Source: Escherichia coli
GTDB lineage: Bacteria > Pseudomonadota > Gammaproteobacteria > Enterobacterales > Enterobacteriaceae
Direction: 5' to 3' (one strand)
Assembly: GCF_030384885.1 (NCBI RefSeq)
Contig: NZ_CP128613.1
DNA length: 64,000 bases
The notes under the pieces are model-generated. The model was not told the DNA's origin, did not search any database, and saw only the letters and a program-made list of their open reading frames with translations. This document shows, in pieces, positions 6,474-29,965 of the stretch (its first letter is position 1; every line of letters starts with the position of its first letter). The position numbers and the translations under genes are program-made.

Positions 6474-6488
6474 ATATAAGGAATACCA

Positions 6489-8185: not shown

Positions 8186-8187
8186 GC

Positions 8188-9153
8188 ATGAGTAAACAAC
8201 GTATTTTTATCGCTGGCCATCGCGGGATGGTCGGTTCTGCCATCAAGCGACAGCTCGAACAGCGCGGTGATGTGGAACTGGTATTACGCACCCGCGACGA
8301 ACTGAACCTGCTGGACAGCCGCGCGGTGCATGATTTCTTTGCCAGCGAGCGCATTGACCAGGTCTATCTGGCGGCGGCGAAAGTGGGCGGGATTGTCGCC
8401 AACAACACGTATCCGGCGGATTTCATCTACCAGAATATGATGATTGAGAGCAACATCATTCACGCTGCGCATCAGAACGACGTGAACAAACTGCTGTTTC
8501 TCGGATCGTCCTGCATCTACCCAAAACTGGCAAAACAGCCGATGGCAGAAGGCGAGCTGTTACAGGGCACGCTGGAGCCGACCAACGAGCCATACGCCAT
8601 TGCCAAAATCGCCGGGATCAAACTGTGCGAATCTTACAACCGCCAGTATGGACGCGATTACCGCTCTGTCATGCCGACCAACCTGTACGGGCCGCACGAC
8701 AACTTCCATCCAAGTAATTCGCATGTGATCCCCGCATTGCTGCGCCGCTTCCACGAGGCGACGGCACAGAATGCACCGGACGTGGTGGTGTGGGGCAGCG
8801 GTACGCCGATGCGCGAATTTCTGCACGTCGATGATATGGCGGCGGCAAGCATTCATGTCATGGAGCTGGCGCACGAAGTCTGGCTGGAAAACACCCAGCC
8901 GATGCTGTCGCACATTAACGTCGGCACGGGCGTTGACTGCACTATCCGCGAGCTGGCGCAAACCATCGCCAAAGTGGTGGGTTACAAAGGCCGGGTGGTT
9001 TTTGATGCCAGTAAACCGGATGGCACACCGCGCAAACTGCTGGATGTGACGCGCCTGCATCAGCTTGGCTGGTATCACGAAATCTCACTGGAAGCGGGGC
9101 TTGCCAGCACTTACCAGTGGTTCCTTGAGAATCAAGACCGCTTTCGGGGGTAA
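8188..9153 (+). CDS. fcl: GDP-L-fucose synthase (GDP-4-keto-6-deoxymannose epimerase/reductase), 321 aa
   Basis: Rossmann [19 protein letters not shown] motif; immediately downstream of gmd. Confidence 0.95.
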
Positions 9154-9155
9154 TG

Positions 9156-9635
9156 ATGTTTTTACGTCAGGAAGACTTTGCCACGGTAGTGCGCTCCACA
9201 CCGCTTGTCTCTCTCGACTTTATTGTCGAGAACAGTCGCGGCGAGTTTCTGCTTGGCAAAAGAACCAACCGCCCGGCGCAGGGTTACTGGTTTGTGCCGG
9301 GAGGGCGCGTGCAGAAGGACGAAACGCTGGAAGCCGCATTTGAGCGGCTGACGATGGCGGAACTGGGGCTGCGTCTGCCGATAACAGCGGGTCAGTTTTA
9401 CGGTGTCTGGCAGCACTTTTATGACGATAACTTCTCCGGCTCGGATTTTACCACGCACTATGTGGTGCTCGGTTTTCGCATCAGAGTAGCGGAAGAAGAG
9501 CTGTTACTGCCGGATGAGCAACATGACGATTACCGCTGGCTGACGCCGGACGCGTTGCTCGCCAGTGACAATGTTCACGCTAACAGCCGCGCCTATTTTC
9601 TCGCTGAGAAGCGTGCCGGAGTACCCGGATTATGA
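9156..9635 (+). CDS. gmm: GDP-mannose mannosyl hydrolase (Nudix), 159 aa
   Basis: Nudix fold protein following fcl; start placed at second ATG (MFLRQEDF...) overlapping fcl stop. Confidence 0.85.
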
Positions 9636-10857: not shown

Positions 10858-12294
10858 ATGTCGCAGTCGAAACTCTATCCAGTTGTGATGGCAGGTGGCT
10901 CCGGTAGCCGCTTATGGCCGCTTTCCCGCGTACTTTATCCCAAGCAGTTTTTATGCCTGAAAGGCGATCTTACCATGCTGCAAACCACCATCTGCCGCCT
11001 GAACGGCGTGGAGTGCGAAAGCCCGGTGGTGATTTGCAATGAGCAGCACCGCTTTATTGTCGCGGAACAGCTGCGTCAACTGAACAAACTCACCGAGAAC
11101 ATTATTCTCGAACCGGCAGGGCGTAACACTGCACCTGCCATTGCGTTGGCGGCGCTGGCGGCAGAACGTCATAGCCCGGACAGCGATCCGTTAATGTTGG
11201 TCCTGGCGGCAGATCATGTGATTGCCGACGAAGACGCGTTCCGCGCCGCCGTGCGTAATGCCATGCCGTATGCCGAAGCGGGCAAGCTGGTGACCTTCGG
11301 CATTGTGCCGGATCTACCTGAAACCGGATATGGCTATATTCGTCGCGGTGAAGTGTCGGCGGGTGAGCAGGATACGGTGGCCTTTGAAGTGGCGCAGTTT
11401 GTCGAAAAACCGAATCTGGAAACCGCTCAGGCCTATGTGGCAAGCGGCGAATATTACTGGAACAGCGGCATGTTCCTGTTCCGCGCCGGACGTTATCTCG
11501 AAGAACTGAAAAAATATCGCCCGGATATTCTCGACGCCTGCGAAAAAGCGATGAGCGCCGTCGATCCGGATCTCGATTTTATTCGCGTGGATGAAGAAGC
11601 GTTTCTCGCCTGCCCGGAAGAGTCGGTGGATTACGCGGTCATGGAACGTACGGCAGATGCCGTTGTGGTGCCGATGGATGCGGGCTGGAGCGATGTCGGT
11701 TCCTGGTCCTCTTTATGGGAGATCAGCGCCCACACCGCGGAAGGCAACGTTTGCCACGGCGATGTGATTAATCACAAAACCGAAAACAGCTACGTGTATG
11801 CCGAATCTGGCCTGGTCACCACCGTCGGGGTAAAAGATCTGGTAGTGGTGCAGACCAAAGACGCGGTGCTGATTGCCGACCGTAACGCGGTGCAGGATGT
11901 GAAAAAAGTGGTCGAGCAGATCAAAGCCGATGGTCGCCATGAGCATCGGGTGCATCGCGAAGTGTATCGCCCGTGGGGCAAATATGACTCTATCGACGCG
12001 GGCGACCGCTACCAGGTGAAACGCATCACCGTGAAACCGGGCGAGGGCTTGTCGGTACAGATGCACCATCACCGCGCGGAACATTGGGTAGTGGTCGCGG
12101 GAACGGCAAAAGTCACCATTGACGGTGATATCAAACTGCTTGGTGAAAACGAGTCCATTTATATTCCGCTGGGGGCAAAACACTGCCTGGAAAACCCCGG
12201 GAAAATTCCCCTCGATTTAATTGAAGTGCGCTCCGGCTCTTATCTCGAAGAGGATGATGTGGTGCGCTTCGCGGATCGCTACGGACGGGTGTAG
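10858..12294 (+). CDS. cpsB: Mannose-1-phosphate guanylyltransferase (colanic acid copy), 478 aa
   Basis: N-terminal [16 protein letters not shown] nucleotidyltransferase motif, C-terminal cupin domain; synteny. Confidence 0.95.
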
Positions 12295-12395
12295 TAGTTG
12301 AATAATCAACCGGAATAAATCTCCGGTAAATAACGACAAAAACAAAATTGGCCGTTTCGGTCAGGGCCAATTATTGCCTGAAAAAGGGTAACGAT

Positions 12396-13766
12396 ATGAA
12401 AAAATTAACCTGCTTTAAAGCCTATGATATTCGCGGAAAATTAGGCGAAGAACTGAATGAAGATATCGCCTGGCGTATTGGGCGTGCTTATGGCGAATTT
12501 CTCAAACCGAAAACCATTGTGTTAGGCGGTGACGTCCGTCTCACCAGCGAAACCTTAAAACTGGCGCTGGCAAAAGGGTTACAGGATGCGGGCGTTGACG
12601 TGCTGGATATCGGCATGTCCGGCACCGAAGAGATCTATTTCGCCACGTTCCATCTCGGCGTGGATGGCGGCATCGAAGTTACCGCCAGCCATAATCCGAT
12701 GGATTACAACGGCATGAAACTGGTGCGCGAAGGGGCTCGCCCGATCAGCGGTGATACCGGACTGCGCGACGTCCAGCGTCTGGCAGAAGCCAACGATTTT
12801 CCTCCCGTCGATGAAACCAAACGCGGTCGCTATCAGCAAATCAACCTGCGCGACGCTTACGTTGATCATCTGTTCGGTTATATCAACGTCAAAAACCTTA
12901 CGCCGCTCAAGCTGGTGATCAACTCCGGGAACGGTGCGGCGGGTCCGGTGGTGGACGCCATCGAAGCCCGCTTTAAAGCCCTCGGCGCACCCGTGGAATT
13001 GATCAAAGTACACAACACGCCGGACGGCAATTTCCCCAACGGTATTCCTAATCCATTGCTGCCGGAATGCCGCGACGATACCCGCAATGCGGTCATTAAA
13101 CACGGCGCGGATATGGGTATTGCCTTTGATGGCGATTTTGACCGCTGTTTCCTGTTTGACGAAAAAGGACAGTTTATCGAGGGCTACTACATTGTCGGCC
13201 TGCTGGCAGAAGCGTTCCTCGAAAAAAATCCCGGCGCGAAGATCATCCACGATCCACGTCTTTCCTGGAACACCGTTGATGTAGTGACTGCCGCAGGCGG
13301 CACCCCGGTGATGTCAAAAACCGGACACGCCTTTATTAAAGAACGTATGCGCAAGGAAGACGCCATCTATGGTGGCGAAATGAGCGCCCACCATTACTTC
13401 CGTGATTTCGCTTACTGCGACAGCGGCATGATCCCGTGGCTGCTGGTCGCCGAACTGGTGTGCATGAAAGGGAAAACGCTGGGCGAACTGGTGCGCGACC
13501 GCATGGCGGCATTCCCGGCAAGCGGTGAGATCAACAGCAAACTGGCGCACCCCGGTGAGGCGATTAATCGCGTCGAACAGCATTTTAGCCGCGAGGCGCT
13601 GGCGGTGGATCGCACCGATGGTATCAGCATGACCTTTGCCGACTGGCGCTTTAACCTGCGCTCCTCCAACACCGAACCGGTGGTACGCCTGAATGTGGAA
13701 TCGCGCGGTGATGTGCCGCTGATGGAAGCGCGAACGCGAACTCTGCTGACGTTGCTGAACGAGTAA
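12396..13766 (+). CDS. cpsG: Phosphomannomutase (colanic acid copy), 456 aa
   Basis: Canonical phosphohexomutase loops TASHNP, DGDFDR, GEMSAH; start set to [14 protein letters not shown] at 12396. Confidence 0.95.
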
Positions 13767-13820
13767 TGTCGGATCTTCCCTTACCCCATTGCGGGTAAGG
13801 GGCTAATAACAGGAACAACG

Positions 13821-15215
13821 ATGACAAATCTAAAAAAGCGCGAGCGAGCGAAAACCAATGCATCGTTAATCTCTATGGTGCAACGCTTTTCAGATATCAC
13901 CATCATGTTTGCCGGGCTATGGCTGGTTTGCGAAGTCAGCGGACTGTCATTCCTCTACATGCACCTGTTGGTGGCGCTGATTACGCTGGTGGTGTTCCAG
14001 ATGTTGGGCGGCATCACCGATTTTTATCGCTCATGGCGAGGTGTTCGGGCAACGACAGAATTTGCCCTGCTGCTGCAAAACTGGACCTTAAGCGTGATTT
14101 TTAGCGCCGGACTGGTGGCGTTCAACAATGATTTCGACACGCAACTGAAAATCTGGCTGGCGTGGTATGGGCTGACCAGCATCGGGTTGGTGGCGTGTCG
14201 TTCGTGTATTCGCATTGGTGCGGGCTGGTTGCGTAATCATGGCTATAACAAGCGTATGGTTGCCGTGGCGGGGGATTTAGCTGCCGGGCAAATGCTGATG
14301 GAGAGCTTCCGTAATCAGCCGTGGTTAGGGTTTGAAGTGGTGGGCGTTTACCACGACCCAAAACCGGGCGGCGTTTCTAACGACTGGGCGGGCAATCTGC
14401 AACAGCTGGTCGAGGATGCAAAAGCGGGCAAGATTCACAACGTCTATATCGCGATGCAAATGTGCGACGGCGCACGAGTGAAAAAACTGGTCCATCAACT
14501 GGCGGACACCACCTGTTCGGTGCTGCTGATCCCCGACGTCTTTACCTTCAACATTCTCCATTCACGCCTCGAAGAGATGAACGGCGTTCCGGTGGTGCCG
14601 CTGTACGACACGCCACTTTCCGGGGTTAACCGCCTGATAAAACGTGCGGAAGACATTGTGCTGGCAACGCTGATCTTGCTGCTGATCTCCCCGGTGCTGT
14701 GCTGTATTGCGCTGGCGGTGAAATTCAGTTCACCAGGGCCGGTTATTTTCCGCCAGACTCGCTACGGCATGGATGGCAAGCCGATCAAAGTGTGGAAGTT
14801 CCGTTCCATGAAAGTGATGGAGAACGACAAAGTAGTGACCCAGGCGACGCAGAACGATCCGCGCGTCACCAAAGTGGGGAACTTTCTGCGCCGCACCTCG
14901 CTGGATGAATTGCCGCAGTTTATCAATGTGCTGACCGGGGGGATGTCGATTGTGGGGCCACGTCCGCACGCGGTGGCGCATAACGAACAATATCGCCAGC
15001 TCATTGAAGGCTACATGCTGCGCCACAAAGTGAAACCGGGCATTACCGGTTGGGCGCAGATTAACGGCTGGCGCGGCGAAACCGACACGCTCGAGAAAAT
15101 GGAAAAACGCGTCGAGTTCGACCTTGAGTACATCCGCGAATGGAGCGTCTGGTTCGATATCAAAATCGTTTTCCTGACGGTATTCAAAGGCTTCGTTAAC
15201 AAAGCGGCATATTGA
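13821..15215 (+). CDS. wcaJ: UDP-glucose:undecaprenyl-phosphate glucose-1-phosphate transferase WcaJ, 464 aa
   Basis: Polyprenyl-phosphate hexose-1-P transferase C-terminal domain (SLDELPQFINVLTGGMSIVGPRP); synteny. Confidence 0.9.
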   Translation: MTNLKKRERAKTNASLISMVQRFSDITIMFAGLWLVCEVSGLSFLYMHLLVALITLVVFQMLGGITDFYRSWRGVRATTEFALLLQNWTLSVIFSAGLVAFNNDFDTQLKIWLAWYGLTSIGLVACRSCIRIGAGWLRNHGYNKRMVAVAGDLAAGQMLMESFRNQPWLGFEVVGVYHDPKPGGVSNDWAGNLQQLVEDAKAGKIHNVYIAMQMCDGARVKKLVHQLADTTCSVLLIPDVFTFNILHSRLEEMNGVPVVPLYDTPLSGVNRLIKRAEDIVLATLILLLISPVLCCIALAVKFSSPGPVIFRQTRYGMDGKPIKVWKFRSMKVMENDKVVTQATQNDPRVTKVGNFLRRTSLDELPQFINVLTGGMSIVGPRPHAVAHNEQYRQLIEGYMLRHKVKPGITGWAQINGWRGETDTLEKMEKRVEFDLEYIREWSVWFDIKIVFLTVFKGFVNKAAY

Positions 15216-15216
15216 T

Positions 15217-16695
15217 ATGAGCTTACGTGAAAAAACCATCAGCGGCGCGAAGTGGTCGGCGATTGCCACAGTAATCATCATCGGCCTCGGGCTGGTGCAG
15301 ATGACCGTGCTGGCGCGGATTATCGACAACCACCAGTTCGGTTTGCTTACCGTTTCGCTGGTGATTATCGCGCTGGCAGATACGCTTTCTGACTTCGGTA
15401 TCGCTAACTCGATTATTCAGCGAAAAGAAATCAGCCATCTTGAACTCACCACGCTGTACTGGCTGAACGTCGGGCTGGGGCTTGTGGTGTGTGTGGCGGT
15501 GTTTTTGTTGAGTGATGCCATTGGCGACGTGCTGAATAACCCGGACCTGGCACCGTTGATTAAAACATTGTCGCTGGCGTTTGTGGTGATCCCCCACGGG
15601 CAACAGTTCCGCGCGTTGATGCAAAAGGAGCTGGAGTTCAACAAAATCGGCATGATCGAAACCAGCGCGGTGCTGGCGGGCTTTACTTTTACGGTGGTTA
15701 GCGCCCATTTCTGGCCGCTGGCGATGACCGCGATCCTCGGTTATCTGGTCAATAGTGCGGTGAGAACGCTGCTGTTTGGCTACTTTGGCCGCAAAATTTA
15801 TCGCCCCGGTCTACATTTCTCGCTGGCGTCGGTGGCACCGAACTTACGCTTTGGTGCCTGGCTGACGGCGGACAGCATCATCAACTATCTCAACTCCAAC
15901 CTTTCAACGCTGGTGCTGGCGCGTATTCTCGGTGCGGGCGTAGCAGGGGGGTACAACCTGGCGTACAACGTGGCCGTTGTGCCGCCGATGAAACTGAACC
16001 CGATCATCACCCGCGTGTTGTTTCCGGCGTTTGCCAAAATTCAGGACGACACCGAAAAGCTGCGCGTTAACTTCTACAAGCTGCTGTCGGTGGTGGGGAT
16101 TATCAATTTTCCGGCGCTGCTGGGGCTGATGGTGGTGTCGAATAACTTTGTACCGCTGGTCTTTGGTGAGAAGTGGAACAGCATTATTCCGGTGCTGCAA
16201 TTGCTGTGTGTGGTGGGTCTGCTGCGTTCGGTGGGTAACCCGATTGGTTCGCTGCTGATGGCGAAAGCGCGGGTGGATATCAGCTTTAAATTCAATGTAT
16301 TCAAAACCTTTCTGTTTATTCCGGCGATTGTTATTGGCGGGCAGATGGCGGGTGCAATCGGCGTCACGCTTGGTTTCCTGCTGGTGCAGATTATCAACAC
16401 CATTCTGAGTTATTTCGTGATGATTAAACCGGTGCTCGGTTCCAGTTATCGCCAGTACATCCTGAGTTTATGGCTGCCGTTTTATCTCTCGCTGCCGACG
16501 CTGGTGGTTAGTTATGCGCTGGGCATTGTGCTGAAAGGGCAACTGGTGCTGGGGATGCTGCTGGCGGTGCAAATTATCGCAGGCGTGCTGGCGTTTGTGG
16601 TGATGATCGTGTTGTCGCGCCATCCGCTGGTGGTGGAAGTGAAGCGTCAGTTTTGTCGCAGCGAAAAAATGAAAATGCTTTTACGGGCGGGGTGA
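15217..16695 (+). CDS. wzxC: Colanic acid repeat-unit flippase WzxC, 492 aa
   Basis: Polytopic membrane protein of Wzx/MOP type; synteny. Confidence 0.9.
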   Translation: MSLREKTISGAKWSAIATVIIIGLGLVQMTVLARIIDNHQFGLLTVSLVIIALADTLSDFGIANSIIQRKEISHLELTTLYWLNVGLGLVVCVAVFLLSDAIGDVLNNPDLAPLIKTLSLAFVVIPHGQQFRALMQKELEFNKIGMIETSAVLAGFTFTVVSAHFWPLAMTAILGYLVNSAVRTLLFGYFGRKIYRPGLHFSLASVAPNLRFGAWLTADSIINYLNSNLSTLVLARILGAGVAGGYNLAYNVAVVPPMKLNPIITRVLFPAFAKIQDDTEKLRVNFYKLLSVVGIINFPALLGLMVVSNNFVPLVFGEKWNSIIPVLQLLCVVGLLRSVGNPIGSLLMAKARVDISFKFNVFKTFLFIPAIVIGGQMAGAIGVTLGFLLVQIINTILSYFVMIKPVLGSSYRQYILSLWLPFYLSLPTLVVSYALGIVLKGQLVLGMLLAVQIIAGVLAFVVMIVLSRHPLVVEVKRQFCRSEKMKMLLRAG

Positions 16696-16767
16696 ATAGT
16701 TGTTTTCGGTTCCGGCAACGAACACAACAAACACAGCCTCACCTGGCATCAAATTTATGAGGAAAAA

Positions 16768-18048
16768 ATGAAATTACTGATTCTGGGCAACCACACTTGC
16801 GGCAATCGCGGCGACAGTGCCATCTTGCGCGGCTTACTTGATGCCATCAATATCCTCAATCCACACGCCGAAGTGGACGTAATGAGCCGCTATCCGGTCA
16901 GTTCTTCCTGGCTGCTCAACCGTCCGGTAATGGGCGATCCGCTGTTCCTGCAAATGAAACAACACAACAGCGCGGCGGGTGTTGTCGGGCGCGTAAAAAA
17001 AGTCCTCCGTCGCCGCTATCAACACCAGGTACTGCTCTCACGCGTTACCGATACTGGCAAGCTGCGTAATATCGCCATCGCCCAGGGATTCACCGACTTT
17101 GTGCGCCTGCTGTCAGGTTACGATGCCATTATCCAGGTCGGCGGTTCGTTTTTTGTTGATCTCTACGGCGTGCCGCAGTTTGAACACGCGCTTTGCACTT
17201 TCATGGCGAAAAAGCCGCTGTTTATGATTGGTCACAGCGTCGGCCCGTTCCAGGATGAGCAATTTAACCAACTGGCAAACTACGTATTCGGGCACTGCGA
17301 CGCGCTGATCCTGCGCGAATCGGTCAGCCTGGATCTAATGAAACGCAGCAATATCACTACCGCAAAAGTTGAACATGGCGTCGATACCGCGTGGCTGGTC
17401 GATCACCACACCGAAGACTTCACCGCCAGCTATGCTGTTCAACACTGGCTGGACGTAGCCGCACAGCAGAAAACGGTGGCCATTACCCTGCGCGAACTGG
17501 CACCGTTCGACAAACGTCTCGGCACCACTCAACAAGCGTATGAAAAAGCCTTTGCCGGGGTGGTCAATCGCATTCTCGATGAAGGGTATCAGGTGATTGC
17601 GCTCTCCACCTGTACGGGCATCGACAGCTATAACAAAGACGACCGCATGGTGGCGCTCAACCTGCGTCAGCACATCAGCGATCCTGCCCGTTATCACGTG
17701 GTGATGGATGAACTCAACGATCTGGAAATGGGCAAAATCCTCGGTACCTGTGAACTCACCGTCGGTACGCGCCTGCACTCTGCCATTATCTCGATGAATT
17801 TCTCCACTCCGGCAATTGCCATCAACTACGAACATAAATCCGCCGGGATTATGCAGCAGCTGGGGCTGCAAGAGATGGCGATTGATATTCGCCATTTACT
17901 GGACGGCAGCCTGCAAGCGATGGTTGCGGATACCTTAGGCCAGCTTCCGGAGCTGAATACACGACTTAACGAAGCCGTCAGTCGCGAGCGCCAGGCAGGA
18001 ATGCAGATGGTGCAATCTGTGCTTGAGCGCATCGGGGAGGCGAAATGA
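16768..18048 (+). CDS. wcaK: Colanic acid pyruvyl transferase WcaK, 426 aa
   Basis: Size and synteny. Confidence 0.85.
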   Translation: MKLLILGNHTCGNRGDSAILRGLLDAINILNPHAEVDVMSRYPVSSSWLLNRPVMGDPLFLQMKQHNSAAGVVGRVKKVLRRRYQHQVLLSRVTDTGKLRNIAIAQGFTDFVRLLSGYDAIIQVGGSFFVDLYGVPQFEHALCTFMAKKPLFMIGHSVGPFQDEQFNQLANYVFGHCDALILRESVSLDLMKRSNITTAKVEHGVDTAWLVDHHTEDFTASYAVQHWLDVAAQQKTVAITLRELAPFDKRLGTTQQAYEKAFAGVVNRILDEGYQVIALSTCTGIDSYNKDDRMVALNLRQHISDPARYHVVMDELNDLEMGKILGTCELTVGTRLHSAIISMNFSTPAIAINYEHKSAGIMQQLGLQEMAIDIRHLLDGSLQAMVADTLGQLPELNTRLNEAVSRERQAGMQMVQSVLERIGEAK

Positions 18049-19265
18049 AGGTCGGCTTCTTTTTACTGAAATTTCCGCTGTCGTCGGAAACCTTCGTTCT
18101 CAACCAAATCACTGCGTTTATTGATATGGGCTTTGAGGTGGAGATTGTCGCGCTGCAAAAAGGCGATACGCAAAACACCCACGCGGCATGGACGAAATAT
18201 ACCCTTGCCGCCAGAACTCGCTGGTTACAGGACGAACCACAAGGCAAAGTGGCGAAACTGCGCCACCGCGCCAGCCAGACCTTACGCGGCATTCATCGTA
18301 AAAATACCTGGCAGGCGCTCAACCTCAAACGCTATGGTGCTGAGTCGCGGAACCTGATTTTGTCTGCCATTTGCGGCCAGGTCGCAACACCGTTTCATGC
18401 TGATGTGTTTATCGCACATTTTGGCCCAGCGGGGGTAACCGCAGCAAAACTACGGGAACTGGGTGTCATTCGCGGCAAAATCGCCACTATCTTCCACGGT
18501 ATTGATATCTCCAGTCGGGAAGTGCTCAACCATTACACTCCCGAATATCAACAACTGTTTCGCCGTGGCGACCTGATGTTACCGATTAGCGATCTGTGGG
18601 CCGGAAGGCTGCAAAAAATGGGCTGCCCGAGGGAAAAAATTGCCGTATCGCGCATGGGTGTAGACATGACGCGCTTTAGCCCGCGTCCGGTGAAAGCGCC
18701 CGCAACACCGCTGGAAATCATTTCCGTCGCACGCTTAACCGAGAAAAAAGGCCTGCATGTGGCGATCGAAGCCTGCCGTCAGTTGAAAGAGCAGGGCGTG
18801 GCATTTCGCTATCGCATCCTCGGCATTGGCCCGTGGGAACGACGCCTGCGCACCCTCATCGAACAATATCAACTGGAAGATGTGGTAGAGATGCCGGGCT
18901 TTAAACCGAGCCACGAAGTGAAGGCGATGCTCGACGACGCGGATGTCTTTCTGTTGCCATCGGTAACGGGTGCTGACGGCGATATGGAAGGCATTCCGGT
19001 GGCGCTGATGGAAGCGATGGCGGTCGGCATTCCGGTGGTTTCTACTCTGCATAGCGGAATACCGGAACTGGTGGAGGCCGATAAATCCGGCTGGCTGGTG
19101 CCTGAGAACGATGCTCGCGCACTGGCGCAACGACTGGCGGCGTTTAGCCAACTGGACACCGACGAACTTACTACGGTTGTCAAACGTGCGCGCGAAAAAG
19201 TCGAACACGATTTTAACCAGCAGGTGATTAACCGAGAACTCGCCAGCTTGTTGCAGGCTTTATAG
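18045..19265 (+). CDS. wcaL: Colanic acid glycosyltransferase WcaL (GT4), 406 aa
   Basis: GT4 C-terminal motifs; synteny. Confidence 0.85.
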
Positions 19266-19275
19266 AGGAGAACGC

Positions 19276-20670
19276 ATGCCATTTAAAAAACTCTCCCGAC
19301 GCACCTTCCTGACGGCAAGCTCGGTGCTTGCCTTCCTCCATACCCCTTTCGCCCGTGCAATTCCCGCTCAACAAAGCGTTAACATTAACGACTACAATCC
19401 ACATGACTGGATCGCTTCATTTAAACAAGCCTTCAGCGAAGGGCAAACGGTCGTCGTGCCTGGCGGATTGGTTTGCGACAATATCAACACCGGCATCTTC
19501 ATCCCCCCTGGCAAAACGTTACACATCCTGGGAAGCCTGCGCGGCAACGGCAGAGGGCGATTTGTCTTACAGGACGGCAGCCAGGTGACAGGGGAGAAGG
19601 GCGGCAGTATGCATAACATCACCCTGGATGTGCGCGGCTCTGACTGCACCATTAAAGGGCTGGCCATGAGCGGCTTTGGCCCGGTAACGCAGATTTATAT
19701 TGGCGGCAAAAACAAACGCGTCATGCGCAACCTGACCATCGATAACCTCACCGTTAGCCATGCTAACTACGCTATCTTACGGCAGGGATTTCATAATCAG
19801 ATTATTGGTGCCAACATCACCAACTGTAAGTTCAGCGACTTACAGGGCGACGCTATTGAATGGAACGTGGCGATTAACGACAGTGATATTTTGATATCCG
19901 ACCATCTCATTGAGCGCATTAACTGTACCAACGGCAAAATCAACTGGGGCATCGGCATAGGCCTTGCGGGAAGTACCTACGATAATAATTATCCGGAAAA
20001 CCAGGCAGTGAAAAACTTTGTCGTTGCGAATATCACGGGATCAGATTGTCGGCAACTGATCCATGTTGAAAATGGTAAACATTTTGTTATTCGTAATATC
20101 AAAGCCCGCAATATCACGCCGGATTTCAGTAAGAAAGCAGGCATTGATAACGCGACAGTTGCTATTTACGGTTGTGACAATTTCGTGATTGATAATATTG
20201 AAATGATTAATAGCGCCGGGATGTTAATCGGTTATGGGGTAATTAAAGGCAAATATCTCTCGATACCGCAGAATTTCCGAGTGAATAATATTCAACTGGA
20301 TAATACCCACCTTGCTTACAAATTGCGCGGCATCCAAATCTCCGCCGGGAATGCCGTCTCCTTTGTGGCACTGACTAACATTGAGATGAAGCGTGCCTCG
20401 CTGGAGCTTCACAATAAACCGCAACACCTTTTTATGCGCAATATCAAGGTGATGCAGGAATCCTCTGTTGGACCTGCATTGAGCATGAACTTCGACATGC
20501 GCAAAGACGTTCGTGGCGTGTATATGGCGAAAAAAGAAACACTGCTGTCTCTTGCAAATGTTCATGCGGTGAATGAAAGAGGGCAAAGCTCCGTCGATAT
20601 CGACAGGATTAATCACCATATTGTTAATGTGGAAAAGATTAACTTTAGATTGCCGGAACGGAGGGAGTAG
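19276..20670 (+). CDS. wcaM: Colanic acid biosynthesis protein WcaM (signal peptide, beta-helix-like), 464 aa
   Basis: N-terminal twin-arginine-like signal sequence ([13 protein letters not shown]); last gene of cps operon by synteny. Confidence 0.85.
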
Positions 20671-20844
20671 ATTTGCGACCATTCCTGGAAAAATGGAGCC
20701 ATACTTAGGAACAATGCTACTGCAATCCACAACGAAGCGGCGTAACATCACAAGTAATTCAGTAATCAATTCAGGGTAATTGATGCTGGCGAAAAAAATC
20801 GAACAAGCTATAATTCAGCAACCATTTTACAGGTGGATGAAATA

Positions 20845-21738
20845 ATGACGAATTTAAAAGCAGTTATTCCTGTAGCGGGTCTTGGGATGCATATGTTGCC
20901 TGCCACTAAGGCGATTCCCAAAGAGATGCTACCGATCGTCGACAAGCCAATGATTCAGTACATTGTTGACGAGATTGTGGCTGCAGGGATCAAAGAAATC
21001 CTCCTGGTAACTCACGCGTCCAAGAACGCGGTCGAAAACCACTTCGACACCTCTTATGAATTAGAATCTCTCCTTGAACAGCGCGTGAAGCGTCAACTGC
21101 TGGCGGAAGTGCAGTCTATCTGTCCGCCGGGCGTGACCATTATGAACGTGCGTCAGGGCGAACCTTTAGGTTTAGGCCACTCCATTTTGTGTGCACGACC
21201 CGCCATTGGTGACAACCCATTTGTTGTGGTATTGCCGGACGTTGTGATCGACGACGCCAGTGCCGACCCGCTGCGCTACAACCTTGCTGCCATGATTGCG
21301 CGCTTCAACGAAACGGGCCGCAGCCAGGTGCTGGCAAAACGTATGCCGGGTGACCTCTCTGAATACTCCGTCATCCAGACCAAAGAGCCGCTGGACCGCG
21401 AAGGTAAAGTCAGCCGCATTGTTGAATTTATCGAAAAACCGGATCAGCCACAGACGCTGGACTCAGACATCATGGCCGTAGGTCGCTATGTGCTTTCTGC
21501 CGATATTTGGCCGGAACTTGAACGAACTCAACCTGGCGCATGGGGACGTATTCAACTGACTGATGCCATTGCTGAACTGGCGAAAAAACAGTCCGTTGAT
21601 GCCATGCTGATGACTGGTGACAGCTACGACTGCGGTAAAAAAATGGGTTATATGCAGGCATTTGTGAAGTATGGACTACGCAACCTGAAAGAAGGGCCAA
21701 AGTTCCGTAAGAGCATTGAGAAGTTGCTCGGGGAATAG
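20845..21738 (+). CDS. galF: UTP-glucose-1-phosphate uridylyltransferase-like regulatory subunit GalF, 297 aa
   Basis: GalU/GalF nucleotidyltransferase motif [29 protein letters not shown]; start at 20845 with RBS aggtgg. Confidence 0.9.
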
Positions 21739-21992
21739 ATCCAAGCCAATGTAACAATAATTTAGATAAATAGCGGCAGCTAACATCCCGGCGTCTATGC
21801 TTTAAACAAAGGAATGTTACTGTCGTTTTTCTTTTTAAAACAAAGAATAACAACGAGTTAACCTACTAAGTTTAATCTATTTTTTGTTGGATTTATCCTT
21901 GTTTCTGACAGCATTTGGTAAGACAATTGGCGTTTGAATTTAAGATAGCTTTGCGATAGCTAGCGGGGCGGAGTACATCTTTGGCATTTTGC

Positions 21993-22031
21993 TAGTGCAC
22001 TGGTAGCTGTTAAGCCAGGGGCGGTAGCGTG
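21993..22031 (+). promoter_or_regulatory. JUMPstart element with ops (RfaH-dependent antitermination) upstream of the O-antigen cluster
   Basis: agtgcactggtagctgttaagccaggggcggtagcgtg; ops core ggcggtag at 22020-22027. Confidence 0.85.
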
Positions 22032-22130
22032 GTAAGATTGTGTTTATATGATGCGTTCTCAAAATAAGAAATAATAATCCTGACTATCTTTATACTATTG
22101 ATAATATCTGAAATAAACTTAAGAGCAAAC

Positions 22131-23135
22131 ATGAAAGTAATTGTAAATAATTTTTTTGATGGTATTTTGAAAAGAGGAATACCGATCTATACTTCTGAAC
22201 TTGTGCAAAAGTTAAGAGACAATAATGTTCAGGTTATTTATGTTGCATGTCCAAAAGCATTCCATAAGCTGCCTTCATGGTTTCTGAATGTTCTTTTTAT
22301 AATAGTAGAGCAGCTTTTAATACCAATTATGGGTATATTTTATAGAACTAAGTATAATATATATCCCTATAATAGTAGTTCCATCATTGACTTGTTATTA
22401 GGTAAGGCAATTGTTATAATTCATGACTTCATTAGTCTTAAGAAAAATAAACGAAACCTTGCTGCCATTTATGTGAAAGTCTGTATTTATTTTTCATCTT
22501 TTTTAGCAAAGAAAGTAATATTTATTTCTCAAAGCACTCAGCGAGTATCTAAGAGAATATCGCTATTTAAGCGTATAGAATCTATCCTGCTCCCAAATCC
22601 ATTTTTCTCATTTGAGAAAATTGCTAATGTTACCGAAATAAAAGATCTTGGATATTTACTTCTAGTTTCAGGTTTAGGGGATAATAAGGATCTAGGCACA
22701 GCTCTGGACTATTATTTTTCAATCCCAAGGGAAGAAAGAATACCATTAAAAATATTAGGTTGTGGGAATGGTATTAGCAAGGTTAACGACTTAATTGATG
22801 GGCGGGATACAGATAAAGAAATTGAAATTATTGGTTTTGTTTCTTTAGAGGAAGTCGTCAAACTATATTGTAATTCTAAAATTGTTTGGGCTCATTCGCT
22901 TGCCGAGGGGTATGGCAGGACTTTAGCTGAAGCAAAACTCACATGCAAAAATGTTATATGCACACGGATCTCTGCTTTCCGCGAACAAAAGGATTCGAAT
23001 ATTTTCTTTTATACTTACTATTCTGAGTATTATGAAGTCTATTCATACTTGGTAGATAATTCACCCAGTGTCGAAAGGAAAGCTCTGCATGAACATATTT
23101 TATTTGAAAATGAATTGAGAAAGATTTATGAGTAA
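22131..23135 (+). CDS. O-antigen glycosyltransferase, GT4-like (likely mannosyltransferase), ~334 aa
   Basis: Low-GC ORF; C-terminal E-x7-E-type motif (AHSLAEGYGRTLAEAK); start set to MKVIVNN at 22131 with RBS aagag. Confidence 0.6.
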   Translation: MKVIVNNFFDGILKRGIPIYTSELVQKLRDNNVQVIYVACPKAFHKLPSWFLNVLFIIVEQLLIPIMGIFYRTKYNIYPYNSSSIIDLLLGKAIVIIHDFISLKKNKRNLAAIYVKVCIYFSSFLAKKVIFISQSTQRVSKRISLFKRIESILLPNPFFSFEKIANVTEIKDLGYLLLVSGLGDNKDLGTALDYYFSIPREERIPLKILGCGNGISKVNDLIDGRDTDKEIEIIGFVSLEEVVKLYCNSKIVWAHSLAEGYGRTLAEAKLTCKNVICTRISAFREQKDSNIFFYTYYSEYYEVYSYLVDNSPSVERKALHEHILFENELRKIYE

Positions 23136-24330
23136 TATTGATATAAATAAGAAACAGATATTAGTTTTGACTCCACGGTTCCCATTTCCTGTCATTGGTG
23201 GGGATCGATTACGTATCTATAAGATCTGTAAAGAACTGTCTAAGCATTATGATCTTACGTTGCTGAGTCTGTGTGATAAACGCGAAGAGCTCAACTATGA
23301 ATATGATCGTGAAGTTTTTAGTAGTGTTCACAGAGTATATCTTTCAAAGAAAAAATCTGTTTTAAATGTCATATTCTCTTTGTTTTCAAATACACCCCTA
23401 CAGATTGGGTATTATAAATCTAAAGAATTTGAAGATAAACTTAAGCAGTTATTACCTGAACATTCTGCAACTCTTTCACATTTGATAAGGGTTGGTGATT
23501 ATGTGAAAGAGAATAAAGATATAAATTTTTTAGAGATGACCGATGCCATTTCACTTAATTATAAACGAGTAAAGGAAAAAGCATCTTTATTGAGTTTAAA
23601 AACATTTGTATATTCTTTTGAACAAAAAAGACTCGAACGATATGAGCGAACTATAAATAACAAGTTCAGCTTGACTACTTTGGTATCACAGGTTGACTCC
23701 GATTATTTATATCCAGAGCGTCCGAATAATGTATTAGTTTGTGGAAATGGTGTTGATGCCGTTAGCTTACCTTTTTCAGAACGAAAAATAGCTAAAGATA
23801 AAAAGATAACCCTTGTATTTATAGGTAATTTATATTCTTTGCAAAATATGGATGGTGTGAGATGGTTCACCAAGGAAGTTTTACCATTTCTGAACAAGCA
23901 TGGTAATTTTGAATTTAAGGTCATCGGACGTATTACAGATAAAGATAAGAGTTGGTTAGAAAGCCAGCCTGGCGTTGTTGTCACAGGTGAAGTTGATAGC
24001 ATAACTTATGCAGCAGCTGATGGGCATATTGGTGTGTGTCCTATTAGATTAGGGGCAGGTATCCAAAATAAGGTACTTGAATATATGGCGTTGGGATTAC
24101 CTTGTATATCTTCTACTGTAGGCTTTGAAGGCTTGGGAGCAGAGGAGGGTAAGGAGATTTATGTTGCCAATACAAAAGAAGAATATTTACGTGTATTAAA
24201 TTATTTTATAACAAATCTGGATAAATATACCGAAACAGCATTAGTTGCGAAAAAGTTTATCGATGAGAATTTTTCATGGGAAGCTAAATTGAGCCCATAT
24301 ATCCAGAAAATTAAGGAGTCTGTTAAATAA
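23128..24330 (+). CDS. O-antigen glycosyltransferase, GT4 family, 400 aa
   Basis: GT4 signature region [43 protein letters not shown]; 8-nt overlap with upstream GT. Confidence 0.7.
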
Positions 24331-24331
24331 A

Positions 24332-25747
24332 ATGATTATCCCAATTATTATGGCCGGTGGTTCTGGGACTCGCTTATGGCCTCTTTCGCGTTCGTTATAC
24401 CCGAAACAATTTTTATCATTGACTAATGAAAATAGTTTGCTCCAGGAAACGTTGAAGCGACTTGATGGATTAAATTGTTTGCCTCCTGTCATTGTTAGCA
24501 ATAATGAGCATAGATTTATTGTTGCTGAACAATTGCGACAGTTCGGTGTGGATGACTTCCAGATTATTCTAGAACCTGTAGGTAGAAATACTGCGCCCGC
24601 CGTTGCGCTGGCTGCTCTAAAGGCTCTGGAACTCCATGGCGATCATCATATGCTGGTTCTTGCTGCTGACCATGCTATTCAGGATATTGAAGCCTTCCAT
24701 GCAGCTGTTTTAGCTGCAGAACAAGAGTCCGTTGACAATAAGTTAGTGACTTTTGGCATCGTCCCGACCAAACCTGAAACTGGGTATGGCTATATTAAAA
24801 AGGGCGAACAAGTTAAAAACTCCGTATTTAAAGTAAATTCTTTCGTCGAAAAACCTGATTTAGAAACGGCTAAAAATTATCTCGAACAAAAATGCTATTT
24901 GTGGAATAGTGGTATGTTCATGTTCAAGGCGAGCGTATATTTAGATGAATTGAAAAAATTTCGCCCTGATATTTTAGCAGCGTGTAAAGAGTCGCTTTCC
25001 AGTGCTAGTACTGATCTAGATTTTATCAGATTAAATTCTGATGTCTTTGCAGAATGTCCCGATGAGTCAATTGATTATGCGGTAATGGAAAAAACTCAGG
25101 ATTGTGTAGTTATTCCACTTGATGCTGACTGGAGTGACATCGGATCATGGACATCACTTTGGGAAATATCAGAGAAAGATGAACATGAAAACGTATCGCA
25201 TGGTGATGTAATTAACTATAACAGCAGGAACAACTACATTTACTCTGAAGGTTCACTGATCAGCACTGTTGGAGTTAATAACCTTATTATAGTTCAAACT
25301 AAAGATGCGCTCCTGGTAGCACAGCAAGACAACGTACAAGACATAAAGAAAATTGTCGAAATTCTTAAAAAACAAAAACGTAGCGAACATATATCCCATC
25401 GCGAAGTCTATCGTCCTTGGGGACGTTATGATTCTGTAGAACGTGGCGACCGTTATCAGGTAAAACGTATTACCGTTAAGCCTGGTGAATGTCTCTCAAC
25501 ACAAATGCATCATCATCGAGCTGAGCATTGGGTGGTTGTCGCTGGTACTGCAAAGGTGACTTGCGGCGAACGCACTTATTTCGTCACTGAAAATGAGTCA
25601 ACTTTCATACCAATTGGCACAGTTCATACCTTGGAAAATCCAGGAAAGATACCATTAGAAGTAATTGAGATTCAGTCGGGTGTATATCTAGGTGATGATG
25701 ATATTGTGCGCCTAAGTGATAAATATGGTCGTGTTGAGGATAAATAA
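24332..25747 (+). CDS. manC: Mannose-1-phosphate guanylyltransferase (O-antigen copy), 471 aa
   Basis: [16 protein letters not shown] motif and cupin C-terminus; paralog of cpsB in this window but low GC. Confidence 0.9.
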
Positions 25748-25751
25748 TTAT

Positions 25752-27173
25752 ATGAATATTACCAATGATGTAATTAAAAATAGCGGAATTGCATTTGGTA
25801 CAAGTGGTGCTCGTGGATTAGTGAAAGATTTTACACCCAACGTGTGTGCTGCATTCACTTATGCTTTTATCGATGTAATGATGAAGGATTTTTCTTTTAA
25901 AGAGGTTGCGCTCGCAATAGATAATCGCCCAAGCAGCTATGCTATGGCACAAGCTTGCGCAGCAGCATTGTTGGAATGTAGTATTAAACCTATTTACTAC
26001 GGTGTAATTCCAACTCCAGCTTTGGCAAATCAAGCGATTGCCGATGGGATTCCTGCAATAATGGTTACTGGAAGTCATATTCCATTTGATAGAAATGGTT
26101 TGAAATTCTATCGTCCAGACGGGGAAATTTCAAAAGAAAATGAGAACAGCATTATACATGCTGAAAAAGAATATCCTGATGTAACTGTATTGCCAGAATT
26201 ACAATGTTCAAAGCGTGCCGCTGATACTTATATCGAGAGAAACACTTCAATTTTTTCAAATATATTTAAAGGTAAACGTATCGGGATTTATGAACATTCA
26301 AGTGCGGGACGGGATCTTTATCCAGAAATATTCAGTAAGCTTGGTGCTGAAGTTGTAAGTATTGGTAGAAGTGATGAGTTTGTGCCTATTGATACTGAAG
26401 CAGTATCAAAAGAAGATGAAGAAAAAGCTTTACACTGGTCATCTGAGTATGACCTCGATATGATTTTTTCTACCGATGGTGATGGCGATCGTCCTTTGGT
26501 TGCTGACGAAAATGGCGTTTGGTTACGGGGTGATATATTAGGACTATTTTGCTCAAAGGCAATGAATATTGAAGCGGTAGCTGTACCTGTAAGTTGTAAT
26601 ACGGTTATTCAGACCTGCGGGTGGTTTAATCATGTAACGCTGACTAAAATTGGTTCACCATACGTCATTTCAGCGTTTGATTCTCTGAATAATAGTTTTG
26701 ATAGTGTTGCAGGGTTTGAGGCTAACGGTGGGTATCTTTTAGGTAGCGATGTAAATTATAACAGCGGTATGATTAAAGCGCTTCCAACAAGAGATGCTGT
26801 TTTGCCTGCTTTAATGGTACTGGCACTGGCTATAAAAAATAATGTGACTATTTCAAAACTTTTGGCGGAGTTGCCACCACGATTTACCTATTCAAATAGA
26901 GTTCAAAATTTTGCAACAAGCAAAAGCAAAAGCATTATCGCGTCAGCTCAAGAAAATCCTCAAGAATTTATCGAAAGAATAGGCTTTGTCGACCTTCATG
27001 TACAATCGGTGGATACAATTGACGGGTTAAGATTGACACTAAGTGATGGTTCAATAATCCATTTGCGACCGTCAGGCAACGCACCTGAATTGCGATGCTA
27101 TGCAGAAGCAGATAACATAATAAAAGCTGAGAAATTAGTGTTAGAAATTTTGCATAAAGTTACTCTTTTGTAA
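25752..27173 (+). CDS. manB: Phosphomannomutase-like alpha-D-phosphohexomutase (O-antigen copy), ~473 aa, divergent from cpsG
   Basis: Phosphohexomutase loops present but atypical: TGSHIP (phosphoserine loop), DGDGDR (metal), GFEANGG (sugar), RPSGNAPE (phosphate); start set to MNITNDV at 25752. Confidence 0.75.
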
Positions 27174-27356
27174 AAAAATATAAACTTTTTTCTACTCTTG
27201 AGCGGTTTGTCATTGAACCGCTCAGTAATAGATTATTTTTAACTTGTTTATATTTAGCATTGGTGTTTTTATTTGCGTTCATCCCGAATAAGAGATTGTA
27301 AAATTAACTGTTTCTTGTTTTTCAAATGAGTTACTTCACTAGCAAAGCTAATTACT

Positions 27357-28688
27357 ATGCATAAGCAATATTATTCATTATTGTGCAATAAAATACAGTT
27401 TAAACATCTGGCTATATATTTTTCTGTATTTCTTTCACTATCCTCATGTTTCTTGTGGGGAGGGGCGGATACATTTGTATCGCAAGTGTATATTGATATT
27501 TTAGCCACTATATCTACAGCTCTATTAGTTATTTTGATGTTCTATTATTATATTAATAGAGTTCGCTATTTATCACTAACCTTACTTTTTGCATTCGTTT
27601 TTTCTTTGATTATTGGTTTGCCATCGATTTATCTTTACTATTTTAAAAACGCAAATCATGGGTTTGAAATAATTTGTATCTGGGGGATGTTGATCAATTC
27701 CATCCTTTACTTGCAAACAACAGAGACTGTCATAAAAGAAGAAAAAAGATATTTAACTAGTTTATTTTATATTTTGTTTTCTATTGTTGCACTGTGTCAA
27801 TTATGCAAAATATTAATTTATCTTATGTTTATATTGAATTCAGGAGAAGGGCATTTAGCAATTTATACTGAAAGCGAAGAATTGCTATCCCAAGTTCCAT
27901 TTTTTATTCGTGCTATTAGTGGTTTTGCAGTTGTAATGTCATTGTCCACTTTTTATTTTAAAACACCGACCTACATTAAAGTTATTGCATTTATTTTACT
28001 TGCATCTGATTTAGCTATTGGAATACGTAATAAGTTTTTCTTTTCAGTGATTTGTATTTTTATACTATATATGTACTCTAATGAGTATAGAGTAAGGAAT
28101 TTATTTAAGCAGCTCTCAAAACCAATATTTCTCATCGCGGGTTTTTTATGCTTCTCGATGGTATCGTATTTCCGTGAAGGGTACCAAATCGATTTTATGA
28201 ATTATATTGGCATTGTTTTAGATTCGCTATCCTCTACTCTTGGGGGGATGCAGAATTTGTTTGATATGCAATCATCAGGATGGGATCAACTTCATCCCGC
28301 TGTGGTATTCACACAAGTATTACCGCTAAGCGGTCTTGGTTTTCTTGATGATCAACAAATCGCAAAAGATTTTTCAATAATTGTTTTAGGTGATGTATCC
28401 TCTGGTATTGCGTTGTCATCTTCAGGATTGTTAGAGTCATCGTTGCTGAGTCTAAATTTGGGAGTGATTATTTATTTACTGTATTTATCAGGGGTGATGC
28501 TATTTATTAAATGGGGACTAAATAATCAACGGATAATAATAAACTTTGTTGCCATCTCCATGATATCTGGATTTTTTTATGCTGTTCGTGGTGAACTGAT
28601 TTTGCCATTGGCTTTTCTTCTAAAATCATTGCCGATTGTTCTTATATCTCCATTACTTGTTAAAAATAAAATTTATCATGGTCAGTAA
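27357..28688 (+). CDS. wzy: Putative O-antigen polymerase Wzy (polytopic membrane protein), 443 aa
   Basis: Very hydrophobic, low-GC, poor RBS, lies next to wzx in the O-antigen cluster; assignment by elimination. Confidence 0.55.
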   Translation: MHKQYYSLLCNKIQFKHLAIYFSVFLSLSSCFLWGGADTFVSQVYIDILATISTALLVILMFYYYINRVRYLSLTLLFAFVFSLIIGLPSIYLYYFKNANHGFEIICIWGMLINSILYLQTTETVIKEEKRYLTSLFYILFSIVALCQLCKILIYLMFILNSGEGHLAIYTESEELLSQVPFFIRAISGFAVVMSLSTFYFKTPTYIKVIAFILLASDLAIGIRNKFFFSVICIFILYMYSNEYRVRNLFKQLSKPIFLIAGFLCFSMVSYFREGYQIDFMNYIGIVLDSLSSTLGGMQNLFDMQSSGWDQLHPAVVFTQVLPLSGLGFLDDQQIAKDFSIIVLGDVSSGIALSSSGLLESSLLSLNLGVIIYLLYLSGVMLFIKWGLNNQRIIINFVAISMISGFFYAVRGELILPLAFLLKSLPIVLISPLLVKNKIYHGQ

Positions 28689-28729
28689 GTGGTTTATTTT
28701 TCGACCAGGATCTCACCAGTAGGCATGAC

Positions 28730-29965
28730 ATGATCAAAGAAATTTTCTCCGATGGCATTTTTTCGCTATTTAATAAAATATGTTACTTCGGTTTTAAAAC
28801 ACTTGCAATAATTCTGATTACTCGTTCCTTAGGAGAAGATGTAGGCGGAGAGTTCATTTTTTTAGTTGGTTTTCTCGAAGTCCTTCGGGTGGTTACTGAT
28901 TTTGGTGTGGATCTGTTTGTTATAAAAAAATATAATGATTCTACAGATAAAATAAAACTATTAAATGTAACGTTTGCACAAAAAATTCTTTCTGGAGTAA
29001 TTGTTTCACTACTGTTTTGTTTGTATTCTTTTGTTCATGGTTATCAATATAATGTCTATATTCCTATTGTGTTAGCCTTACCTGTTGCTTTATTTTTTAA
29101 TTTCTCAAATAGCTATTTTCAATCTCTCAATTCCAATAAATCCCTCACGTTTCCGATCGCAATTGCATCTATTGCAACGTGTACGATCTTCGCTATTCAG
29201 TATTTTTTAAACGTTAAATTTAACGCATGGGATTACCTGTGTGTTGAACTATTATTCGTATCGCTGGTTACACTAAAACTATTCGTTAGTGTCAAGTTTA
29301 GGTTTATTAGAACGTCAGCTTTTGATGTGCTAATGTCAATTCTTTCTTTATATAAATATACATTAAGTATAGGTCTTACAGCTGTTGTTGTAATTATTTA
29401 TAGCCGTGTAGATAATTTTTATCTCAAGACATTTGCCCCAGGGGATCTTGCAGCATATGGCCAGATATTTAGGATGGTTGATCCACTGGTTATGGTTTCT
29501 TCTGTATTTTCTACAGTTGCCTATGCAAGATTTTGCCGAATTAACTTACAAGAAAAAAATGCTTTTACTAAGGTGTTTCAGTTCCTGTTATGTATTGTGG
29601 CATATGGCGTGCTGAGTTCATTAGTTTATTTCTTTATAATAAAATACCTGGGTCATTTTGTGTTGATTTCTAATGTTAATAATGATTTCTTGATAATGAT
29701 GTTCTTGATTGTTGCATGTGTGAAATGTATCAATGGTGGTACAACTGCAATAATTCAGTCACAGGGGTTTTATAAAGTGGGTTTGTATGTTTCGTATGTT
29801 TGCATTTTGACATCGATACCAACTATGTATTTCTTAATAATGAAGTACGGTGTTAAAGGTGCTGCTATGACGATTCTGCTTGTAGAGTGTATTAGTTTCA
29901 TATTACTTCTCTGCAGCTTTTTTATGATAAAAAAGATGCGTCCTAAAAAAACATTCGAAATGTAA
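28730..29965 (+). CDS. wzx: Putative O-antigen flippase Wzx, 411 aa
   Basis: N-terminal region LAIILITRSLGEDVGGEFIFLVG...DFGVDLFVIKK parallels the wzxC N-terminus (LARIIDNHQFGLLTV...DFGIANSIIQRK); about 12 hydrophobic segments. Confidence 0.65.
   Translation: MIKEIFSDGIFSLFNKICYFGFKTLAIILITRSLGEDVGGEFIFLVGFLEVLRVVTDFGVDLFVIKKYNDSTDKIKLLNVTFAQKILSGVIVSLLFCLYSFVHGYQYNVYIPIVLALPVALFFNFSNSYFQSLNSNKSLTFPIAIASIATCTIFAIQYFLNVKFNAWDYLCVELLFVSLVTLKLFVSVKFRFIRTSAFDVLMSILSLYKYTLSIGLTAVVVIIYSRVDNFYLKTFAPGDLAAYGQIFRMVDPLVMVSSVFSTVAYARFCRINLQEKNAFTKVFQFLLCIVAYGVLSSLVYFFIIKYLGHFVLISNVNNDFLIMMFLIVACVKCINGGTTAIIQSQGFYKVGLYVSYVCILTSIPTMYFLIMKYGVKGAAMTILLVECISFILLLCSFFMIKKMRPKKTFEM

Follow-up and report, generated by a model that had tools for sequence, protein, structure and literature searches.

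Two pairs of GDP-mannose genes, cpsB-cpsG in the colanic acid (wca) operon and manC-manB in the nearby O-antigen cluster, lie on the same strand of a 64,000-nt stretch of Escherichia coli contig NZ_CP128613.1 (assembly GCF_030384885.1), which is referred to here as the window. A map of its open reading frames (ORFs), together with a megablast search of positions 21700-30200 against complete E. coli genomes, identified the window as the wca/O-antigen/gnd/his region of the chromosome. We consider it very probable that the two pairs are GDP-mannose supply modules with separate histories, that the manB of this O-antigen family ('O77g', below) is unconverted, and that the two loci share no DNA homology that recombination could use. 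The presence of two self-contained GDP-mannose pairs side by side is itself a long-known and ordinary arrangement, and duplicate neighbouring GDP-mannose pathways are a textbook trait of enterobacterial polysaccharide loci.

Divergence of the two gene pairs

The guanylyltransferases encoded by the two pairs are clearly homologous. The product of cpsB (10858-12294, + strand), the predicted mannose-1-phosphate guanylyltransferase of the wca operon, scored 1112.5 bits against the NF012004 CpsB equivalog model (cut-off 859; positions 1-478 of 478) and 810.9 bits against the TIGR01479 GMP_PMI model (cut-off 372.95; profile 1-467 of 467). The product of manC (24332-25747, +), a predicted bifunctional mannose-1-phosphate guanylyltransferase/mannose-6-phosphate isomerase, likewise covered the whole GMP_PMI profile (1-467 of 467), with 756.6 bits vs 372.95, but it fell below the NF012004 cut-off, scoring 709.8 vs 859 bits. 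By these profile scores ManC is classed as a GMP_PMI family member and not as a CpsB orthologue. Both proteins carry the Pfam domains NTP_transferase, ManC_GMP_beta-helix, MannoseP_isomer and Cupin_2, that is, an N-terminal nucleotidyltransferase and a C-terminal isomerase. Aligned with each other they are co-linear and identical at 286/473 positions (60%; BLASTP E = 0), far above chance. The initial annotation of this DNA had described two GDP-mannose pairs with co-linear similarity between manC and cpsB, and that description was confirmed for all four genes and for the protein motifs it quoted. The distance of 12 kb that it gave between the pairs was approximate: the pairs begin ~13.5 kb from each other, with ~10.6 kb lying between cpsG and manC.

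The mutases are much less alike. CpsG (12396-13766, +), the predicted phosphomannomutase of the colanic acid operon, scored 1053.5 bits against NF011943, 'phosphomannomutase CpsG' (cut-off 801), has PGM_PMM domains I-IV above the Pfam cut-offs, and retains the catalytic phosphoserine and metal-binding loops of an alpha-D-phosphohexomutase as TASHNP and DGDFDR. Its nearest relatives in the PDB are the Xanthomonas phosphogluco/phosphomannomutase XanA (5bmn/6nn2, 576 bits) and Pseudomonas AlgC (1k35, 194 bits). ManB (25752-27173, +), the putative phosphomannomutase of the O-antigen operon, is encoded by a gene that begins 4 nt past the manC stop codon. It also has PGM_PMM domains I-IV, but it scored only 22.1 bits against the CpsG-type model NF011943, with its cut-off of 801. 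Its nearest solved relative is a Brucella phosphomannomutase, 4hjh_A (E = 9e-96, 324 bits, residues 10-463), and AlgC matched at 29 bits. The corresponding loops of ManB, TGSHIP and DGDGDR, are intact, and GFEANGG and RPSGNAP are also common to ManB and 4HJH. CpsG and ManB themselves are 24-25% identical (24% over a partial alignment, E = 1e-8; 24.7% in a second comparison). The assignment of manB and cpsG to different phosphohexomutase sublineages, one 4HJH-like (324 bits) and the other XanA/AlgC-like (576/194 bits), was therefore upheld. Alternative starts were considered for both mutase genes. For manB, an earlier-noted GTG at 25716 lies inside manC, and the ATG at 25752 was preferred on the RefSeq annotation and the fit to 473-aa relatives. 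For cpsG, the TTG at 12348 chosen by the ORF finder was rejected for the ATG at 12396, since in an ORF read from that TTG the match to NF011943 sets in at residue 17; RefSeq agrees.

At the DNA level, codon-aware alignment gave 59.9% identity for cpsB/manC, with 33.8% identity at third codon positions, a value at or near saturation, and identical runs of up to 12 nt. Between these two genes, blastn gave best segments of 73% identity over 164 nt and 76% identity over 78-79 nt. For cpsG/manB, identity was 37.9% and the longest identical run was 9 nt. Base composition divides the pairs in the same manner, with GC contents of 0.559 for cpsB and 0.551 for cpsG vs 0.402 for manC and 0.381 for manB. 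The corresponding values at third codon positions (GC3) are 0.630 and 0.635 vs 0.322 and 0.262. The very different nucleotide composition reported earlier for manC and cpsB is thus real. All six O-antigen genes between galF and gnd have GC contents of 0.32-0.40 and GC3 of 0.26-0.32, and most wca genes have GC contents of 0.54-0.56 and GC3 of 0.60-0.70. Patches of lower GC were also seen inside the wca operon, at 4380-7037 and 19276-20670 (wcaD 0.425, wcaE 0.465, wcaF 0.486 and wcaM 0.473), which suggests that the colanic acid cluster is itself a mosaic.

The O-antigen cassette has a counterpart in Salmonella. A Salmonella contig (logan:SRR1384994_31), presumably of serogroup O:6,14, carries two glycosyltransferase genes, manC, manB, wzy and wzx in collinear order between galF and gnd, with 70-84% protein identity to the window's cassette and GC contents of 0.29-0.37. 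The two glycosyltransferases are 76-79% identical to their Salmonella counterparts, and the galF and gnd genes on either side are 94-96% identical. The low GC content and the collinearity with Salmonella together argue that manC-manB travel with the O-antigen cassette and not with wca. ManB relatives outside E. coli are led by Salmonella, at 75% identity, and then come from Photobacterium, Aeromonas, Vibrio and Moritella, at ~62-66%. Within the species, 239 further E. coli genomes of other serogroups carry the ManB lineage at ~65% DNA identity. A homologue search with ManC was swamped by near-identical sequences from E. coli and Citrobacter and gave no outgroup signal; Salmonella and Aeromonas neighbours were compared directly instead. 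In that comparison ManC was no closer to CpsB (59.5%) than was the Aeromonas ManC (59.2%).

The O-antigen cluster could be assigned to a family. Positions 21700-30200 matched NZ_CP027579.1, the chromosome of strain 2013C-4282, at 100%, and 2 mismatches were found over the 48.5 kb of the window compared with that strain. Gene names used here are from the RefSeq annotation of NZ_CP027579.1 (a window coordinate equals the L001 coordinate + 1699). About 92 other complete genomes matched the 8.5-kb O-antigen cluster at 99.3%, with RefSeq wzx/wzy names of the O17/O44/O73/O77/O106 family, and a strain named O17_K12a is among the genomes matching at 99.3-100%. The clusters of these serogroups are mutually >99% identical (PMC7685785). 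By its identity of >99% and its position between galF and gnd, the cluster of the window is a member of the O17/O44/O73/O77/O106 ('O77g') family. The assignment stops at the level of the family because the side-branch gtr genes are prophage-borne (PMC7685785) and so lie outside the window.

Recombination potential and alternative explanations

The initial annotation had proposed that the similarity of manC and cpsB provides a stretch at which the colanic acid locus and that of the O antigen could recombine or be deleted. That proposal did not survive the alignment. A DNA identity of <75% with no run >20 bp had been set beforehand as the level that would rule it out, and the pair, at 59.9% with no run of at least 20 nt, is below it. 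A search of positions 1-32000 for repeats found no direct repeats between wca and the O-antigen cluster of at least 18 nt at >85% identity. The sole cpsB/manC repeat family was 57 nt long and 77% identical, and the other families, of 18-31 nt, were at chance level. The shortest identical segments measured to support recombination are of 25-90 bp, and the rate drops exponentially with divergence (PMC9650840). Direct repeats with runs of at least ~25 bp, the kind of substrate used in manB-cpsG recombination, were not found in the window, the longest runs being the 12 and 9 nt given above. A hidden gene-conversion tract between cpsB and manC was also considered. A scan for identical codons at conserved degenerate positions gave a maximum of 0.64 in a 25-codon window, equal to the permutation 95th percentile of 0.64 (P = 0.16), and the candidate was dropped.

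As a positive control, the same alignment script was applied to E. coli B REL606, an O7 strain. REL606 cpsG and the O7 manB had a DNA identity of 94.6%; one identical run was 122 nt long, and 22 runs reached at least 20 nt. REL606 cpsB and manC were as divergent as the pair in the window (57.8%, longest run 12). Recombination between manB and cpsG (96% identity) gave 7 rearrangements in the long-term evolution experiment, in which the region was deleted in 10/12 populations (PMC4173774). The O14 type strain is likewise described as having lost its O-antigen cluster through recombination of two manB-type genes (Jensen and Reeves 2004, as cited in PMC7685785). The recombination mechanism is thus real elsewhere, but it works through cpsG-like manB copies that are absent from this cluster. 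In the O77g family no cpsG-like copy has taken the place of the O-antigen manB. The two loci consequently share no DNA homology that recombination could use, and therefore the manB/cpsG route of deletion and gene conversion seen in other serogroups is unavailable here.

A survey of 5,426 complete E. coli genomes gave a broader view. cpsG-like sequence was found at 5,704 places in 4,685 genomes, i.e., ~1,000 extra copies, and cpsB-like sequence at 4,813 places in 4,683 genomes, i.e., ~130 extra copies. Extra cpsG-like copies are thus ~8x commoner than extra cpsB-like copies, and about 1/5 of complete genomes hold one. The O-antigen manB is far more often cpsG-like than manC is cpsB-like. Some 740 complete genomes had no match to cpsG or cpsB at all. 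The cpsG allele of the window strain (within 10858-13766) was found at an identity of at least 99% in a single genome of the 5,426, its own, and the cpsB allele in 5; the 3' region of wca appears to be highly polymorphic and uncoupled from O-antigen type. With manC-manB at an identity of at least 95%, all 93 of the complete genomes concerned (93/93) carry the pair at full length. Another 60 manC megablast matches were considered as possible manC-derived tracts in cpsB. They covered a 53-nt stretch, and 5/5 of those sampled were in genes labelled cpsB by the Prokaryotic Genome Annotation Pipeline (PGAP); the one examined proved to be an O75 O-antigen manC and no hybrid. RefSeq/PGAP names the O-antigen manC/manB genes of O75 (L003 15586-18463) and O7 (L002 6434-7798) 'cpsB' and 'colanic acid biosynthesis phosphomannomutase CpsG', because they are highly similar to the colanic acid copies, and this misnaming can mislead searches.

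Three other explanations were weighed against two modules of separate history that share no usable homology. If manC/cpsB homology did mediate recombination or deletion between the loci, one would point to co-linear homologous direct repeats 13.5 kb apart, and to the like events documented for manB/cpsG in REL606 and O14. Yet the longest shared run lies below the minimal segments for recombination, the gene-to-gene deletions reported in REL606 used manB/cpsG and not its equally divergent manC/cpsB, and none of the 93 genomes has lost part of the pair, so that we hold this explanation to be highly improbable. A local duplication, in which manC-manB was copied from cpsB-cpsG within the E. coli lineage and later diverged, would account for the guanylyltransferase-then-mutase order, the common strand and the neighbouring operons of both pairs. 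It is hardly credible for mutases with ~25% identity whose closest structural relatives differ, for guanylyltransferases near saturation at third positions with a GC3 gap of 0.31, or for a manC-manB whose composition and cross-species collinearity match its O-antigen neighbours and not wca; nor is ManC closer to CpsB than is the ManC of Aeromonas. The GC split, the Salmonella collinearity, the distinct mutase sublineages and the saturated third positions all agree with the separate origins claimed in the initial annotation, and the sequences support the view that the two pairs are ancient paralogues, with local duplication excluded for practical purposes.

The third explanation concerns the function of ManB, which might be a phosphohexomutase of a different kind, such as a phosphoglucosamine mutase or a phosphoglucomutase, leaving O-antigen GDP-mannose to rely on cpsG. 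The best NCBIfam matches of ManB are indeed of the GlmM type, although all are below cut-off, and the CpsG model gave 22 bits. Against this, the closest solved protein was deposited as a phosphomannomutase, and in Aeromonas the ManB lineage is found together with gmd, fcl, gmm and manC. Further, manB follows manC by 4 nt in a cassette whose product has three mannoses and the initiating N-acetylglucosamine (GlcNAc) and no other sugar, and its catalytic motifs are all intact. More than 100 ManB relatives are named phosphomannomutase by their sources, names that are annotations and not assays. On balance we think it very unlikely that ManB is a different mutase. Several points nonetheless weigh against the view of two separately controlled supply modules without usable homology. 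ManB reaches no NCBIfam equivalog cut-off, its best match being Arch_GlmM at 173.5 bits vs 439, and its putative phosphomannomutase activity is deduced from context, the names of relatives and the intact catalytic motifs. The screen for hybrids covered complete genomes only. Illegitimate recombination that needs no RecA could in principle occur at microhomologies of 9-12 nt; such events would not hinge on the manC/cpsB relationship. Lastly, Rcs control of wca, with the operon off under normal growth and mostly silent at 37 °C, is taken from established knowledge of the colanic acid system, whose wza promoter is not part of the window.

Regulation and neighbouring features

A JUMPstart element at 21993-22031 (+; Rfam RF01707, 59.2 bits vs 35) lies downstream of galF, ahead of the first gene of the O-antigen operon, and contains the ops sequence GGCGGTAG at 22020-22027. 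We take this element for the O-antigen operon's RfaH-dependent leader, which would place manC-manB under a control unlike that of cpsB-cpsG. In the cpsB-cpsG spacer, an algC RNA motif (RF02929) was found at 12342-12391 (+), ending 4 nt before the start of cpsG; it scored 73.9 bits vs a gathering score of 33.8 (E = 1.8e-14). Its predicted fold has two hairpins (-16.7 kcal/mol, z = -2.24). The motif is also present upstream of the colanic acid cpsG of REL606 (L002 31102-31151), and it was not found upstream of the cpsG-like O7 and O75 manB copies or of the manB of the window. It is a candidate for a cis-regulatory leader that only the cpsG copy has, and might give the colanic acid cpsG a post-transcriptional control without counterpart at the O-antigen copy.

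We envisage the following division of labour. The cpsB-cpsG pair would supply GDP-mannose to colanic acid, both directly and via gmd and fcl to GDP-fucose. The manC-manB pair, transcribed from the JUMPstart/ops leader, would supply the three mannoses of each O-unit. Both modules would thus feed one metabolite to two polymers under separate control, and differential regulation may be the reason that both persist. The backbone of the O-unit has three mannoses per GlcNAc (PMC7685785), which would explain why the cassette has a manC-manB of its own. Only two glycosyltransferase genes (22131-24330) are present for the three mannosyl linkages and the Wzy-made linkage of that backbone (PMC7685785); presumably one of the two enzymes makes both alpha-1,2 mannose links.

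The gene order around the two pairs is that of the known loci. The colanic acid operon runs wzc, wcaA-F, gmd, fcl, gmm, wcaI, cpsB, cpsG, wcaJ, wzxC and wcaK-M, and is followed by galF. Its gmd, fcl and gmm genes (7064-9635, +; GC 0.54-0.56), named from the RefSeq annotation, lie upstream of wcaI and cpsB and are annotated as consuming or regulating GDP-mannose in the GDP-fucose branch. The galF gene (20845-21738, +; TIGR01105, 685.7 bits vs 659.2) is the conserved 5' boundary of the O-antigen locus. After it come two glycosyltransferases, manC, manB, wzy and wzx, then gnd, ugd, wzzB and the his operon. The two glycosyltransferases (22131-24330, +; GC 0.32-0.34) are of the GT4 type by their Pfam Glycos_transf_1/Glyco_trans_1_4 matches and are presumed mannosyltransferases. 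The wzy and wzx genes (27357-29965, +; GC 0.32) bear RefSeq product names of the O17/O44/O73/O77/O106 family and gave weak matches to the Pfam Wzy and Polysacc_synt models. The conserved 3' boundary is gnd (30118-31524, +; TIGR00873, 769.9 bits).

Some features farther along the window were noted in passing. Between hisL and yeeZ, ~41390-41815 has no annotated gene, and in another E. coli (L003) yefM is found right after hisL; the window thus appears to lack the YefM-YoeB toxin-antitoxin pair. A match to the STnc240 small RNA lies at 43661-43735 (+), between yeeY and yoeI. A truncated EutP/PduV pseudogene at ~50566-50862 (-) adjoins cobU-cobS-cobT. Three tRNA-Asn genes, at 54766-54838 (-), 57175-57247 (-) and 58996-59068 (+), are found around nac, cbl and yeeO, and none of the three carries an inserted island.

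Comparison with known systems

We suggest, tentatively and as something that may well prove otherwise, that the O77g cluster has kept an 'unconverted', non-CpsG manB and is for that reason immune to the manB/cpsG deletions and conversions of O7, O14 and O157, with control of cpsG by the algC motif as a second strand of the same proposal. If so, the lineage of manB would predict the stability of the O-antigen locus. Apart from this proposal, the two pairs of the O17/O44/O73/O77/O106 family have no usable DNA homology in common, and loss or remodelling of the O antigen by manB/cpsG-type recombination is therefore not expected there. The manB and manC of the O77g cluster can for the same reason be used as markers of the serogroup family that do not cross-match cpsB or cpsG. 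O77g Shiga toxin-producing E. coli associated with haemolytic uraemic syndrome have reportedly been found recently within this family.

REL606 (O7) and O14 resemble the window in chromosomal layout: there, too, the GDP-mannose pair of wca and that of the O-antigen cluster form direct repeats. They differ in the mutase: the manB of REL606 is a cpsG-like copy that recombines, whereas that of the window belongs to the other sublineage (37.9%, run of 9), and the route is closed. In E. coli O157, too, the O-antigen cluster lies next to wca and contains a manC-manB pair. The O157 manB is described as having undergone replacement or conversion by cpsG (Samuel et al. 2004, as cited in PMC3158064); it is said there to be >95% identical to cpsG and to show conversion, whereas the manB of the window has no trace of this, and there is only one cpsG-like place in the genome of the window strain.

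The Salmonella enterica cluster of contig logan:SRR1384994_31 matches the cassette of the window in gene order and in its equally low GC. It differs between wzx and gnd, where it has insertion sequence/transposase remnants (DUF4096 and DDE_3, at 12359-13944 of that contig) and the window has a spacer of 152 nt only (29966-30117). The Brucella melitensis phosphomannomutase 4HJH is, by sequence, the nearest solved relative of ManB, aligning over its full length with 324 bits and having TGSHIP, DGDxDR and GFEANGG in common with it, but it comes from a distant organism and another polysaccharide context. The closest known system of all is the E. coli O17/O44/O73/O77/O106 cluster itself (PMC7685785; Liu et al. 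2019, summarising Wang et al. 2007), which adjoins the colanic acid wca cluster and has the identical six genes in the same order and position between galF and gnd. The allele of the window is ~0.7% different from the common allele of this family and identical to that of strain 2013C-4282, and otherwise the two clusters agree in everything substantial.

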